DNA from: Escherichia coli
GTDB lineage: Bacteria; Pseudomonadota; Gammaproteobacteria; Enterobacterales; Enterobacteriaceae
Assembly: GCF_050920415.1 (NCBI RefSeq)
Contig: NZ_CP169309.1
Direction: 5' to 3' (one strand)
DNA length: 64,000 bases
Both the position numbers and the translations under genes were made by a program. Numbering within the stretch: position 1 is the first letter of the stretch; every line of letters begins with the position of its first letter. Below the pieces are notes generated by a model. The model was not told the DNA's origin and searched no databases. It saw only the letters and a list, made by a program, of their open reading frames with translations. This document shows, piece by piece, positions 32,249 to 56,123 of this stretch.

Positions 32249-32445
32249 GCCGGATGTGGCGCACAAAACCAGCGGTTTCAACGGATTGTAGGCCTGATAA
32301 GACGCGTCAAGCGTCGCATCAGGCATTTGGGCACGGCTGCCGGATGCGGCGTGAACGCCTTATCCAGCCTACAAAACCAGCATTTTCAACGGACTTGTAG
32401 GCCTGATAAGACGCGTCAAGCGTCGCATCCGGCATTTGGGCTCAA
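32249..32445. repeat. REP/BIME cluster between convergent ssuB and pepN
   Basis: two near-identical ~68-bp units (32265-32332 and 32372-32441) separated by the REP-type sequence gccggatgcggcgtgaacgccttatccagcctac. Confidence 0.85.
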
Positions 32446-49890: not shown

Positions 49891-51193
49891 GCGCCTGTAC
49901 CTTGGCTCCGTAATCATTAATCGGCTGCCATTTCGCTGGCAGTCCGGTGAAATCTGCTTGCGCTACGCCAAGACGTACCGCCTGATCAATAACAATGCGC
50001 GCAACGTCAAAGTGACGTGCACGCGGATACTGTGACAGATATTCGCGTACCACCAGACCAAGATCCAACGGCACTTGTCTGGTTTTGTACACGGCAAGTT
50101 GTTCTTCGATGATCGCCGCCAGCTGTTCGCGGATCTCGTTAAACTCTTCGTACTCCAGATCCTCAGGAAGTTCCCCAGTCACCTCTTCATCGCGCAGTGC
50201 CATCTCTTCGTCACGCATATCCAGCAGACGATCGGCATTGGCATAAGTTAGCGCCCACGGTTCATCAAAATAGGTTTGTACCGACTGACGTAACCGCTGA
50301 GCAAAGACGCGGTTTTTATCCATATCGATAGCGGTACGAATAAATTTGTGTACGTGGCGGTCGTAGCCAATCCATAAGTCGATGGATTGCTGGCCCCAGC
50401 TGATAATACGGTCAAGTTTGCTTTGCAGATCGAACACCAGACGATCGACGAAATGCAGATCATCATGAGTCATCGTCGCATCCTGAATGCGTAACAGATT
50501 AGCCTGCAATTTATCACCTGCCGCTTCCAGCGTATCCTGCAATTCACGCAGCGTTCCGGAAGTTTCCGAAAGCAACAATTCGCAGCTGGAAATCGCCGCC
50601 CGCCAGTCTTTGTTCAGCAACTGGGCGATATCATCTTTCACCTGCTGCTGCTGTTCGTCCATCAGACGTTGCGTCAGGTCGATGCTGTCGAAAATTTCTG
50701 CTACCGAATATTTCAGTGGCGCATAGACATTACGGTGCCAGTGAAACTCATCACCGCCCTCTTCGGCGGCATCTGCCGCGCGTTTCAGTTCGCCCGCCAC
50801 AATCGACAACTGCATAGAAAGGCGCAGCGTCGAAAACTCGCGCTGACGGATGTAGTAATCGGTAATACCGATGCCAAGCGGCGTCAGACGGTAAATTGCG
50901 TTCCCTTCAGCCTGCTCGCTGGTAAAGCGGTTCAGCAGACGTTGACGCACCATGTCGTTGATCGCGTTGTTGGCGCGCACGCCGATGGTTTCGCTGGTTT
51001 GCTCAAACGCATCACTCACATGGCGGAATGCATCCACCAGCTCGCCTTCACTCATCTCACCATCCAGACGCTCGCCGTTCAGCGTGGCAACTGCCAGCAG
51101 AAAAGAGAGTCGGTCTACCGGCAGCGAGATGGAGAAGTCATTTTTTCTGGCCCAGGCAACCAGTTCGGGGACTGTCTGGGAAAATTCACTCAT
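49871..51193 (-). CDS. mukF: chromosome partition protein MukF (kleisin)
   Basis: 440 aa [22 protein letters not shown]... Confidence 0.95.
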
Positions 51194-51975
51194 ACTTTAT
51201 CCTTGCTCTGCGGTTTGCGCGCGGTGACATGAATATAACGCCCCAGGGTAATATACGGTTCCTGACGGCAATAACGCGTTTCTAATTCAAGTAATGCTTC
51301 ATAGCAGTCGCGCTGCTGGTGCTTCTCGCGCAGGTAATCATGAAACACGCGAACGCCGGTCTTACCCATAATTTGCCAACCAGCTTCTTCCAGCCACAGA
51401 TAAACCTGCGCCGGGTCGCGTGGATAATCTGGCGAAAGCGTCCGTTTTTTCTTTTTCGGCATTCCCGCCTGCACGTAATCAAAATTCCCGGCGACCATGT
51501 TATGCATCAGCAAGCCGTGCGCATTGTAGAACATTAACGACAACACACCGCCTGGACGTAACACTGACCACAGGGTCTGCAATACGCTGCGGGGATCGGC
51601 CACCCACTCGAGCACCGCATGGAACAATATCAGATCAACGGGCGTTTCCAAATGCGAAGCAACATCCTGAGCGGCGCAATGTATAAATTGCATGTTGTCG
51701 CTCACACCTTTTGCTTCTGCCGCCTGTTTTGCGCGGTCGATCATCTGCGCTGAAAGATCGCATAAAATGACCTGATGCCCACGCTCGGCCATTTTGATTG
51801 CGGTCTGCCCTTCTCCACCGCCAGCATCCAGCACACGCAGTTTTTGCGAGCCCATTTCCGCCAGCACGCGATCGAGATCCTGCCACAGAATAGCCTGTCG
51901 AAGCTGCCCTTTGGTGGTGCCGTAAATGTTACGGGAAAACTTTTCCGCAATATCATCAAAATTGCGATCCTGCAT
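51190..51975 (-). CDS. cmoM: SAM-dependent tRNA methyltransferase CmoM (SmtA)
   Basis: 261 aa from [13 protein letters not shown]...; LDAGGGEG methyltransferase motif; 4-bp overlap with mukF. Confidence 0.9.
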
Positions 51976-52110
51976 TGCTTTCTCCACCGGTTGGCTAAGA
52001 CGTTTTCTGATAAAGACGCTATTTTGTCACAGCCACGGCGAGAATGAACCCGTCTGGTGTAATATCGCTGGCGATCCCTTGCTATATGGTCAAAAAAGGA
52101 ACCAGAAAGG

Positions 52111-52890
52111 ATGCTTTTTACACTGAAAAAAGTGATTGGCAATATGTTGCTGCCACTTCCGCTGATGTTGCTGATTATTGGCGCTGGCCTGGCGCTGCTG
52201 TGGTTTAGCCGTTTTCAAAAAACCGGGAAGATTTTTATTAGCATTGGGTGGCTGGCGCTCTTGTTATTGAGTTTGCAACCGATAGCCGACCGCCTGCTGC
52301 GTCCCATCGAAAGCACCTATCCGACATGGAATAATTCGCAAAAAGTGGACTATATCGTGGTGCTCGGAGGTGGTTATACCTGGAACCCGCAGTGGGCACC
52401 GAGCTCTAATTTAATCAATAACAGTCTGCCACGCCTGAATGAAGGTATCCGCTTATGGCGCGAAAATCCGGGATCAAAACTGATCTTCACGGGAGGCGTA
52501 GCAAAAACCAATACGGTGAGTACAGCCGAAGTAGGTGCCCGAGTTGCGCAATCGCTGGGCGTGCCGCGCGAGCAAATTATCACTCTGGATTTGCCAAAAG
52601 ATACCGAAGAAGAAGCTGCGGCAGTGAAACAGGCAATTGGTGACGCACCTTTCCTGCTGGTGACCTCCGCATCACATCTGCCGCGGGCGATGATCTTTTT
52701 TCAGCAGGAAGGGTTAAATCCGCTACCAGCCCCGGCGAATCAGTTGGCCATCGACTCGCCGCTTAATCCGTGGGAACGAGCTATCCCTTCTCCAGTCTGG
52801 TTAATGCATAGCGATCGTGTTGGATATGAAACGCTTGGCCGCATCTGGCAGTGGCTGAAAGGTTCGTCAGGCGAGCCACGGCAAGAGTGA
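52111..52890 (+). CDS. elyC: envelope biogenesis factor ElyC (DUF218)
   Basis: 259-aa ORF with N-terminal transmembrane segments. Confidence 0.9.
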   Translation: MLFTLKKVIGNMLLPLPLMLLIIGAGLALLWFSRFQKTGKIFISIGWLALLLLSLQPIADRLLRPIESTYPTWNNSQKVDYIVVLGGGYTWNPQWAPSSNLINNSLPRLNEGIRLWRENPGSKLIFTGGVAKTNTVSTAEVGARVAQSLGVPREQIITLDLPKDTEEEAAAVKQAIGDAPFLLVTSASHLPRAMIFFQQEGLNPLPAPANQLAIDSPLNPWERAIPSPVWLMHSDRVGYETLGRIWQWLKGSSGEPRQE

Positions 52891-53760
52891 TTTTGATGCC
52901 AGATCGAAGTTGCGCCGACTAAATCGTCCGGTATTAACCAGTTGCGCAACTTCATCCCATAACACATACAACCAACGCCGCCAGATGAACGACTCCGCCA
53001 CTGGCGCGCGTTGCAGATAACTCCAGAGCAAATCTTCCGCCAGAGAATTATCCATTAGTCGGAACAGTTCGTATTCTCGCGGTGCCCAAAGCATTAGTCC
53101 CGGTCCGACCATCGCCAGTAACTGATCGCTGCGCGAATCTTTCAGCATGCTGCCTAAACAGAAGTTACCGTGAATCAGCACACAATTGTCGTTAAAGCCT
53201 TCAAATAATGCCGGGAGACATTCACGGGTGCGAAACAGGATCCGCTTATCTTGCATCGTTAGACCGGTGTTATTGAACTGATTGAGCGTAGTCCATAGCA
53301 CTTCAACATGTTGCCGGTACCATGAGGGCCAGAAATTTTCCTGAGTATTGTCGACCGCGCCGACGCAACCACGACTGTCCTGACGGTGCCAGGCCAGTAA
53401 GGCTTCAACGATTTGGTCTTTGAGTTGTTCCCAGCGTTCTGGTGTTCGGGCTGGTGCCTCCACCGAAACACCACGCATTCGCTCCAGTAGCAGGACATCG
53501 GGGCCGGGGTGTTCTTCATGCGTCATCACACCATAAATAGTCGGCATACGGACAGTCCCACTTCTTGCCAGCATGGTGGTTTTCCATGCCAGTTGTCGGG
53601 CTCTTCCGGGCGCACTAAAGCTTCTTGCCATTAACGGCATTGGGTTTCCCTGGCTGTCATACAAAGCCCACAACGCCGTATCCGCTTTTTCATTGACGCA
53701 CTCAATACGACTGAGTTTTTCGCCCAGTAAATGGCTTAATTCGGCACGCAGCTGTTCCAT
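52867..53760 (-). CDS. ycbJ: uncharacterised kinase-like protein YcbJ (aminoglycoside phosphotransferase-like fold, tentative)
   Basis: 297-aa ORF MEQLRAELSHLLGEKLSRIE...; family assignment from memory. Confidence 0.8.
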   Translation of the reverse strand: MEQLRAELSHLLGEKLSRIECVNEKADTALWALYDSQGNPMPLMARSFSAPGRARQLAWKTTMLARSGTVRMPTIYGVMTHEEHPGPDVLLLERMRGVSVEAPARTPERWEQLKDQIVEALLAWHRQDSRGCVGAVDNTQENFWPSWYRQHVEVLWTTLNQFNNTGLTMQDKRILFRTRECLPALFEGFNDNCVLIHGNFCLGSMLKDSRSDQLLAMVGPGLMLWAPREYELFRLMDNSLAEDLLWSYLQRAPVAESFIWRRWLYVLWDEVAQLVNTGRFSRRNFDLASKSLLPWLA

Positions 53761-53913
53761 TCAGATTACCCTCATAAAAGCTACTGCTTTCATAATGAGC
53801 GCCAATATAAAAGATGTCACCTGAATGAGATCAATTGTTGAAAAGAAAAATTGAGGAAAATCGTAACGGTACGACACTCCTCCCAAAATTGGCTGGAGTG
53901 TCGTGAAGTGAAA

Positions 53914-54839
<926 letters not shown>

Positions 54840-54890
54840 AGTTCCTCCAGATGGATCGGGTTATGAATGCATAAATCTTATCATAATCAT

Positions 54891-56123
54891 TTATGCGACG
54901 GGGTCTATTTCCCAGCCGGCGCGGCAATCAGTAAAGAGGCCTTGCGGGCAGCGTCCTAATGTCACCCGCGTTGCCTGCTGCCAGTTAGCGAAATCAGTAA
55001 TCGCCTGACGTAACCCTTTTTGCAGCGTTGTCGTTGGTTTAATGCCTTCCTGTAACCACAGAGAGATAACTTCAAGGATGCCTGTCTGGCGATGCATTTT
55101 GGCATCCATTCGCCCAACTAATTGCCCACGATGTAATAACGGCAGAACAAAATAGCCATACTGGCGTTTCGGCGCTGGGGTATAGCACTCCAGCCGGTAG
55201 CTAAAATCAAAAAGCTGCTCCGCGCGTTTGCGATCCCAGACAACAGGATCAAAAGGCGAAAGTACCGCGCTGTGCGTTGCAGTGAGCTTTCCGGCGAGCG
55301 CGCGTTCGAGTAGCGGCAGCAAATCAGCATGCAGCCAAAGATTGCCCAATTTTTCAACATGCACAGCAATGATTTGCTGCTGTTCAGCCCTCGCTTCGCG
55401 CCAAGCCGCCAGTGCCGGACGTTTCAGCCGATAGTAATCTGCCAGCCACTGTTCGCGGAATATGCCCAGGCTACGCGCACTGTTATCCAGCATGATGATT
55501 TCTGCTTCTGTTTGCGAAACGAGATCGCGCTCATCATCCCAGTCAGGCATGACACGGTGGGTTAAATCATAAACGCGCTGGAAGTTGCGCCGTTCAATCA
55601 CCATCACCTTTCCGGCAGTAAATAAACCTTCCAGATGCCGTTTATGCGGCTTCCATTCCCACCAACCGCTTGCACCTTTACGAGAATGCTCGAAATCGGC
55701 TGAACGTACCGGCCCCTTATCATGAATATGTTGAATTAACTGTGCAATTTCTGCCGCATGTTCCTGCATCCAGGCGTCTTTGTATTTCCAGCCCATTTTT
55801 TCAGGTGCCAGCATGCGGTGGCGAATAAGACGAAAATCGCTACGTGGCATAAAGCAGGCTTCATGCGCCCAGTATTCCATTAATTCGCCACGCGCCAGAG
55901 ACTCATCCAACCACTGCGCAGGATAATTTCCCAGACGACTGAAAAGCACCAGATATGGACTACGGGCAACAATATTGATGGTATCGATTCGCAGCAAGGA
56001 CATGCGGGAGATCGTTGCCGGAATATCCTCCAACGACGCTCGACGGCGGGGTTTGTTTAACAGGCCTTGCGCGGCAAGGTGAAGATTACGCGCATCAGCA
56101 AGGGAGAGGTGCGGCAGCGACAT
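54891..56123 (-). CDS. ycaQ: winged-helix DNA glycosylase YcaQ
   Basis: 410-aa ORF recognised as YcaQ. Confidence 0.85.
   Translation of the reverse strand: MSLPHLSLADARNLHLAAQGLLNKPRRRASLEDIPATISRMSLLRIDTINIVARSPYLVLFSRLGNYPAQWLDESLARGELMEYWAHEACFMPRSDFRLIRHRMLAPEKMGWKYKDAWMQEHAAEIAQLIQHIHDKGPVRSADFEHSRKGASGWWEWKPHKRHLEGLFTAGKVMVIERRNFQRVYDLTHRVMPDWDDERDLVSQTEAEIIMLDNSARSLGIFREQWLADYYRLKRPALAAWREARAEQQQIIAVHVEKLGNLWLHADLLPLLERALAGKLTATHSAVLSPFDPVVWDRKRAEQLFDFSYRLECYTPAPKRQYGYFVLPLLHRGQLVGRMDAKMHRQTGILEVISLWLQEGIKPTTTLQKGLRQAITDFANWQQATRVTLGRCPQGLFTDCRAGWEIDPVA

Follow-up and report, generated by a model that had tools for sequence, protein, structure and literature searches.

The tail-to-tail overlap of elyC and ycbJ in Escherichia coli: probably an incidental, frozen coding overlap with Rho-limited read-through

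The stretch of Escherichia coli chromosomal DNA that we analysed (64,000 nucleotides of contig NZ_CP169309.1; hereafter the window) contains a convergent gene pair in the order mukF-cmoM, elyC (+), ycbJ (-), kdsB, ycaR and ycaQ. On the forward strand, elyC (also ycbC; 52111-52890) encodes an envelope biogenesis factor of 259 amino acids, and on the reverse strand ycbJ (52867-53760) encodes a putative phosphotransferase of the APH family, 297 amino acids in length; both genes appear in the list of open reading frames and in NCBIfam, Pfam and RefSeq. The NCBIfam equivalog NF007794 covers ElyC end to end (residues 1-259 of 259), as NF007890 does YcbJ (1-297 of 297), while the Pfam domains, DUF218 at residues 80-231 of ElyC and APH at residues 63-249 of YcbJ, stop well short of the tails of the two proteins. 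Nearly all complete E. coli genomes (5422 of 5426) have a match to bases 52000-53900 at 95-99.9% identity, and both reading frames pass as genuine conserved protein-coding genes, with orthologues of 81-98% identity in the 79 species loci listed. The spacer between kdsB and ycbJ (153 nt) holds a candidate ycbJ promoter, the sigma-70-like GTGACA-17-CATTAT at 53792-53820 (-), which is a consensus match only, in a region where the count of sigma-70-like matches is not above that of shuffled sequence. The gene that kinase-like ycbJ adjoins, kdsB, is an LPS gene.

The two genes share their last 24 bp (52867-52890), as a preliminary description of this DNA had claimed and as the sequence, the list of reading frames and RefSeq all confirm. 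Read on the forward strand, this segment encodes ElyC S-G-E-P-R-Q-E-stop, and read on the reverse strand it encodes YcbJ S-L-L-P-W-L-A-stop. Each stop codon indeed lies within the partner's reading frame: the elyC TGA (52888-52890, +) is opposite the TCA codon of YcbJ Ser291, and the ycbJ TGA (52867-52869, -) is opposite the TCA codon of ElyC Ser253. Because both stops begin at coordinate 1 modulo 3, the codons of the two genes are aligned antisense to one another (phase 123:321). The pair thus has the features of a convergent overlap, namely opposite strands with each 3' end and stop inside the partner's frame. An identical 24-bp overlap is present in the RefSeq/PGAP annotation of other E. 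coli strains and of K-12 MG1655, in which ycbJ (b0919) occupies 971752-972645 and elyC (b0920) occupies 972622-973401.

Neither the existence nor the length of this overlap is remarkable when set against chance. The codons TTA, CTA and TCA, which are stops on the aligned antisense frame, account for 5.4% of ycbJ codons, so that a frame running into the end of ycbJ would be expected to continue for at least seven codons before its first antisense stop with a probability of ~0.68. Adjacent genes overlap in 663 pairs in E. coli, 75 of which are convergent (PMC4161906), and among convergent overlaps of more than 4 bp in E. coli, 32% are observed in phase 123:321 as compared to 34% under a neutral model of stop-codon mutation (PMC2174442). 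The length and phase of the elyC-ycbJ overlap fit such a neutral stop-codon-shift model. Comparison among relatives shows that the overlap has persisted across genera and species to a degree beyond chance.

This persistence was followed in 79 species-representative Enterobacteriaceae loci carrying both genes, among the matches listed, from Escherichia, Salmonella, Citrobacter, Enterobacter, Kosakonia, Leclercia, Lelliottia, Atlantibacter and others. The genes overlap, by 21-36 bp, in 75 of the 79 loci listed. Most of the listed loci (68/79) have the 24 bp of the window; five have 21 bp, four of them because elyC ends in TAA or TAG across from the neighbouring Leu codon and one because of a one-codon deletion in ycbJ; and two (L058 and L076) have 36 bp, the ycbJ stop having been lost and ycbJ being four codons longer. 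The ycbJ stop is therefore retained in 77 of the 79 loci listed, whereas the position of the elyC stop is constant to within one codon across all 75 overlapping loci listed, and in none of the 79 does ElyC reach past the stop position at the Ser291 codon. The remaining four (L007, L017, L019 and L031) all belong to the Citrobacter freundii group and have no overlap, because an insert of 35-117 nt separates the genes; the insert contains REP-type sequence in L007, L019 and L031, in which ElyC ends with ...WQWLKG(S/A/R)EH. The core REP motif of the L007 insert also recurs, clustered, elsewhere in the window (32288-32410).

More distant relatives were compared as well. A cluster of Dryocola, Cedecea and Buttiauxella (73% identity to YcbJ) has an overlap of 21 bp; Plesiomonas shigelloides (41% identity) has convergent genes without overlap, separated by a 30-nt gap with an 11-bp hairpin; in a relative at 32% identity, elyC and ycbJ converge across a gap of 107 nt; and one at 43% identity is missing elyC between ycbJ and cmoM. 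The most parsimonious history would be that of an old convergent pair with a spacer, in which the overlap arose early in the Enterobacteriaceae and was reversed in one lineage by REP insertion.

Aligning the tails of the two proteins provides a number of clues as to which of them sets the shared sequence: firstly, the YcbJ tail reads S-L-[LVI]-P-W-[LIV]-[AVST] across loci, its changes being conservative and hydrophobic, and its PWL motif is kept in relatives of 32-43% identity (...LIPWLE, ...LKPWLES and ...LTPWLAY); secondly, the ElyC tail reads S-[GD]-[EKQD]-P-[GR]-[QEK]-[EQK], with substitutions that alter charge and, in some loci, one-codon indels just 5' of this segment; thirdly, in distant ElyC homologues a conserved W-x-x-L-(K/S/T) motif is followed by tails that are unrelated and differ in length, and ElyC of the Citrobacter freundii group is without the SGEPRQE-type tail. 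When YcbJ codons are read in antisense, Leu becomes Glu, Gln or Lys, Trp becomes Pro, and Pro becomes Gly or Arg. The YcbJ tail (...SLLPWLA) is thus an old sequence that has been conserved, and the variable, dispensable ElyC tail (SGEPRQE) is an antisense read-out of it. At a single base, the third of the Ser291 TCA codon, ycbJ is conserved at 0.95, which ranks first among its 79 fourfold-degenerate sites (median 0.56; loci listed), and wherever the Ser291 codon differs from TCA in the loci listed, elyC uses another stop. This base is frozen because it also belongs to the elyC stop codon.

A poorly conserved and dispensable ElyC tail is what one might expect if the overlap were an artefact of annotation, with one protein ending earlier or one frame not being translated as far as its annotated stop. 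The end of translation, however, is set by the stop codon whatever the conservation of the tail, and an earlier in-frame stop is absent from both genes. Moreover, the terminal PWL motif of YcbJ is conserved down to 32% identity, the elyC stop stays within one codon in the 75 overlapping loci above a synonymous site that is the most constrained in ycbJ, and curated equivalog models span both proteins fully. We consider an artefact extremely improbable. The reading-frame ends assumed in the preliminary description hold up as well: the comparative data keep both stop positions and give no sign that either gene is shorter.

We next consider how transcripts of the two genes might end. No intrinsic terminator was found 3' of either stop in a consensus scan of 51800-54100 on both strands, zero Rfam families matched within 51000-55000 at E<=1, and the gene boundary has no GC-rich stem-loop flanked by A- and U-tracts of the kind that defines a bidirectional intrinsic terminator. 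The most prominent structure is a perfect 10-bp inverted repeat (GAAGTTGCGC/GCGCAACTTC; loop of 28 nt) within ycbJ at 52906-52953, beginning 16 nt past the elyC stop, with fold z-scores of -4.0 (+) and -4.5 (-). This hairpin, or else a junction stem at 52844-52886, might act as a bidirectional or 3'-end-protecting element, which would make the overlap a compact termination module; at convergent genes, stem-loops are known to fix where polymerases collide and where 3' ends fall (bioRxiv 10.1101/2022.10.23.513370), and several Enterobacter and Leclercia loci have a hairpin of shifted register. Against such a module, a U-tract is absent from the hairpin on both strands and the terminator scan did not report it; its arms are prescribed by the codons for E-V-A-Q and R-R-N-F; its pairing is not conserved, with just 4-6 of the 10 pairs kept in most other genera and the hairpin lost in another Escherichia species (L005), in Citrobacter and in Salmonella; and Term-seq reports no 3' end there. 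The junction stem was rejected, its z-scores (-1.3 and -0.8) being no better than those of shuffled sequence. We therefore hold a termination module to be very improbable; the hairpin at 52906-52953, which is specific to E. coli, is probably a side effect of the codons that make it up.

Base composition offers a different candidate. Downstream of the elyC stop, a C-rich, G-poor stretch (52891-53190, +) may serve as a rut-like Rho-loading region for elyC transcripts: 80-nt windows across its ~300 nt give a C/G ratio of 1.3-2.1, as compared to a weaker and patchy 0.8-1.4 on the 3' side of the ycbJ stop, although composition alone is not diagnostic on either side.

Published transcript data bear directly on whether polymerases cross the boundary. 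The ycbJ-elyC pair is among 165 convergent excludons seen in at least 50% of 58 MG1655 transcriptomes by ExcludonFinder, for which any overlap of transcript boundaries constitutes an excludon (PMC12288877); by this criterion, an expressed pair with overlapping coding sequences qualifies almost automatically. Quantification of wild-type total RNA by Huang et al. gave sense and antisense values of 36.4 and 5.4 RPM for ycbJ and 20.5 and 7.1 RPM for elyC (PMC7373196 Table S1c), and the corresponding values for neighbouring genes were 106 and 1.7 for kdsB, 91.6 and 2.4 for cmoM, and 82.7 and 1.8 for mukF (PMC7373196). The antisense/sense ratio calculated from these per-gene RPM values, which come without replicate statistics, is 0.35 for elyC and 0.15 for ycbJ as compared to ~0.02 for the neighbours. 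This antisense excess makes reciprocal read-through visible on both genes. Mutual antisense read-through at elyC/ycbJ is thus real on the basis of published antisense reads, and these reads and the excludon listing also agree with the earlier statement, itself correct, that a full-length mRNA of either gene is antisense to the other over at least 24 nt.

On the ycbJ strand, this read-through appears to be limited by Rho. Adams et al. (2021) called a single bicyclomycin-sensitive Rho termination region here, at MG1655 972120 (+) and inside ycbJ (PMC7815308), which after conversion of coordinates corresponds to ~53380-53400 (-) of the window, ~368 nt into ycbJ. The region has a score of 5.47 (p=5e-12; PMC7815308 Supplementary file 2), a value that is taken over 800-nt windows, is of low resolution and may partly reflect read-through from kdsB. 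Reads upstream and downstream of it numbered 135 and 18 without bicyclomycin and 192 and 140 with bicyclomycin (PMC7815308), an effect which suggests that Rho curtails transcription on the ycbJ strand ahead of the overlap or close to it. Between MG1655 971900 and 973299, no Rho region was called on the elyC strand, and the Adams 2021 tables hold no Term-seq 3' end on either strand (PMC7815308); the SMRT-Cappable-seq supplements have zero entries for elyC or ycbJ. As Term-seq shows no 3' end for either gene, the mode of termination at elyC and ycbJ is one that we infer, and Rho would presumably terminate elyC transcripts as well.

These results qualify the earlier contention that the overlap leaves no room for a terminator. 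It stands to the extent that no canonical intrinsic terminator was found, but it overlooked termination that is embedded in the partner or depends on a factor: for 146 of the 165 convergent excludons listed in E. coli, a predicted terminator is embedded in the partner's coding sequence, and Rho acts on the ycbJ strand.

Could the overlap nonetheless be a functional convergent excludon, in which transcriptional interference, RNase III cleavage of the duplex, or both make ElyC and YcbJ mutually exclusive, and which has been kept for that purpose? The pair belongs to the published E. coli excludome, antisense reads are elevated on both of its genes, a terminator is absent between them, and the arrangement is conserved across Enterobacteriaceae; excludon pairs as a class, moreover, show higher synteny and less single-cell co-expression (PMC12288877). 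The weight of the listing is lessened by its near-automatic nature, and the RNA measurements point the other way: p19-captured dsRNA of elyC/ycbJ is low, at 8-19 RPM and under the cluster threshold of ~23 RPM per 200 bp (PMC7373196; single measurements without statistics), and neither ycbJ nor elyC sense RNA is raised in rnc-14 or rnc-38 (PMC7373196; again single measurements without statistics). With transcription weak on both genes, polymerases would be expected to collide only rarely, and Rho curbs ycbJ-strand transcription ahead of the overlap. Nor does the comparative record ask for such a function, as Plesiomonas and further remote relatives have no overlap, four Citrobacter species retain both genes although a REP insertion has separated them, and selection on the YcbJ tail together with selection on the elyC stop suffices to explain the sequence conservation. 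Taken together, these data make a functional excludon unlikely.

The persistence of the overlap over dozens of genera could equally mean that selection has acted on a cis-regulatory interaction. A bolder form of this idea is a selected switch, common to the Enterobacteriaceae, in which reciprocal read-through would render ElyC, with its role in homeostasis of the peptidoglycan/ECA lipid carrier, and the kinase-like YcbJ mutually exclusive, with Rho setting the balance, for example under cold or envelope stress. We regard a switch of this kind as distinctly improbable.

We instead favor, with reasonable confidence, an incidental, frozen tail-to-tail overlap with Rho-limited read-through over a dedicated regulatory device. 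Ancestrally, ycbJ and elyC would have been convergent genes with a short spacer, which then disappeared, unless it was the elyC stop that moved, at an early stage of Enterobacteriaceae evolution. The hydrophilic C-terminal tail of ElyC, being unconstrained, would then have run into the end of ycbJ as far as the first antisense stop, the TCA of Ser291. YcbJ dictates the overlap, its C-terminal ...S-L-L-P-W-L-A motif being under purifying selection, while ElyC is passive, its last seven residues amounting to an antisense translation of that motif. Two forces hold the overlap in place, selection on the YcbJ tail and selection for elyC to stop here or one codon away, the latter of which freezes the otherwise synonymous ycbJ site. 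Without a spacer or an intrinsic terminator, polymerase on each strand enters the partner gene; Rho would probably halt the read-through RNA once it is untranslated, head-on collisions of polymerases may contribute, and the outcome is reciprocal antisense RNA at a low level. Given how weakly the two genes are transcribed, the effect of this RNA on expression is probably small. Regulatory coupling of elyC and ycbJ via the overlap, which the preliminary description had raised, is conceivable in principle, but it looks weak, and the indirect evidence speaks against a role that is strong or necessary.

The elyC-ycbJ overlap is already known, in that it is annotated, is listed as an excludon and is of a common kind, and as one among ~75 E. 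coli convergent coding overlaps its biological weight is small. It does, however, illustrate asymmetric dual coding with textbook clarity, in that a conserved motif dictates the disposable tail of its partner and a synonymous site is frozen, and the Citrobacter freundii group provides a natural un-overlapped control. Its practical consequence concerns deletion strains. The Keio design leaves the start codon together with the last six codons and the stop, the latter 21 nt in length (PMC9504249), as compared to the 24 nt of the overlap; ΔycbJ would consequently lose the elyC stop (52888-52890) and ΔelyC the ycbJ stop (52867-52869), so that, going by coordinates, each Keio deletion should remove exactly the stop codon of the partner. 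According to a 2025 preprint, ycbJ and elyC are oppositely oriented and overlap, deletion of ycbJ inactivates elyC, and both ΔycbJ and ΔelyC connect to one and the same phenotype partner, ΔybiJ (10.1101/2025.02.11.637708). The predicted loss of the elyC stop in ΔycbJ fits both this inactivation and the common link to ΔybiJ. Phenotypes assigned to ΔycbJ or ΔelyC in genome-wide screens may therefore stem from both genes.

How does this locus compare with known systems? Rho-dependent suppression of antisense read-through was reportedly described by Peters et al. in 2012. In such cases the untranslated RNA that lies past a stop codon and is antisense to a gene is a typical Rho substrate. At elyC-ycbJ, a bicyclomycin-sensitive region has likewise been reported for the ycbJ strand (Adams et al. 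2021, PMC7815308), and the C-rich stretch past the elyC stop is a candidate for Rho loading; the locus differs in that the reported region lies inside ycbJ, 5' of the overlap, with none called on the elyC strand. Bidirectional intrinsic terminators between convergent genes are said to have been reported by Ju et al. in 2019. Pairs with such terminators resemble elyC-ycbJ in having little or no spacer, and collisions could aid termination at both (Wang et al., bioRxiv 10.1101/2022.10.23.513370). Unlike them, elyC-ycbJ has no conserved stem-loop flanked by A/U at its boundary; the 30-nt spacer of Plesiomonas contains a hairpin, whereas the Enterobacteriaceae have none.

The excludon concept reportedly goes back to Sesto et al. 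in 2013. Excludons, like elyC-ycbJ, consist of adjacent genes on opposite strands whose transcripts overlap. In the classic examples, a long UTR extends over much of the partner gene and inverse expression has been demonstrated; at elyC-ycbJ, by contrast, it is the coding sequences that overlap, both genes are expressed at low levels, and nothing in the rnc data points to RNase III dependence.

The closest likeness is to the convergent overlapping pairs of prokaryotes, tail-to-tail arrangements which Rogozin in 2002 reportedly traced to a shift of a stop codon. The same origin has been proposed for them elsewhere (Lillo & Krakauer 2007, PMC2174442; Huvet & Stumpf 2014, PMC4161906). Like elyC-ycbJ, these pairs comprise two real genes that share a short 3' stretch of typical phase and length, are conserved among relatives, and have one partner whose tail is a poorly constrained extension. 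Nothing essential sets elyC-ycbJ apart from them: its phase, 123:321, is the second commonest after 123:132, and it is unusual in its stability, which extends to most genera of the Enterobacteriaceae.

Single-gene deletions in the Keio collection retain, by design, the last 21 nt of the deleted gene. Because elyC and ycbJ overlap by 24 nt, this design rule and the sequence together indicate that the ΔycbJ and ΔelyC deletions should each take out exactly the stop codon of the partner gene (52888-52890 for elyC; 52867-52869 for ycbJ), a loss that would confound the phenotypes of both strains in genome-wide screens. A natural 'un-overlapped' control is provided by four Citrobacter freundii-group species, in which an insert of 35-117 nt separates ycbJ from elyC, abolishing the overlap and leaving an ElyC tail that now reads ...EH. 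Three of these inserts are REP-like (L007 1364-1480, L019 3395-3487 and L031 3395-3452, each numbered on the respective species' locus), and the fourth (L017 3395-3429) is not among them. Elsewhere in the window than elyC-ycbJ, three CTTATCAGGCCTAC-like REP-type motifs cluster on alternating strands at 32288-32410, and this clustering indicates a BIME/REP element.

Within ycbJ, 16 nt past the elyC stop codon, begins a perfect inverted repeat with 10-bp arms (GAAGTTGCGC ... GCGCAACTTC) and a 28-nt loop (52906-52953). Its fold z-scores are -4.0 and -4.5, and no U-tract is present at the repeat. E. coli proper keeps it, whereas Citrobacter, Salmonella and other species of Escherichia have lost it. 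The repeat might protect the 3' end of the elyC mRNA in E. coli; alternatively, it may be a by-product of coding.

More distant relatives bear on the history of this boundary. On a Plesiomonas-like contig (L089), ycbJ and a convergent DUF218 gene are separated by a 30-nt spacer, in which lies a perfect 11-bp hairpin (GGAATAACCGC-CAGCGCA-GCGGTTATTCC; about 2025-2060) that takes in the TAA stop codon of ycbJ; this hairpin may represent an ancestral boundary stem-loop that is missing from Enterobacteriaceae. In a relative with 43% identity to YcbJ (L087 2501-4287), the genes run kdsB-ycbJ-cmoM-mukF and elyC is missing between ycbJ and cmoM, so in the course of Enterobacterales evolution elyC was either gained here by insertion or lost. 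A third representative (L086 243-1130; 56% identity) aligns to YcbJ only as far as residue 221, and its C-terminal third is unrelated to the family; this gene resembles a pseudogene with a frameshift or the product of misassembly, and the 14 nt separating it from the convergent gene were therefore left out of the evidence. Separately, a public record named 'Chryseobacterium sp. 18061' (CACSKA010000002.1) carries a ycbJ-elyC locus typical of Enterobacteriaceae, with 84% protein-level identity, and is probably mislabelled or contaminated.

Positions 52000-53900 match one strain, MFDS1022581, at 99.9% identity, but identity to most E. coli, K-12 and BL21 relatives included, is only about 98.3%, so at this locus the window derives from an E. 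coli lineage that is comparatively divergent. The neighboring genes also overlap: cmoM/mukF (51190-51193) and ycaR/kdsB (54657-54660) each share 4 bp in a co-directional start/stop arrangement. These are common ATGA-type operon junctions, whereas the elyC/ycbJ overlap differs from them in being convergent and 24 bp long.
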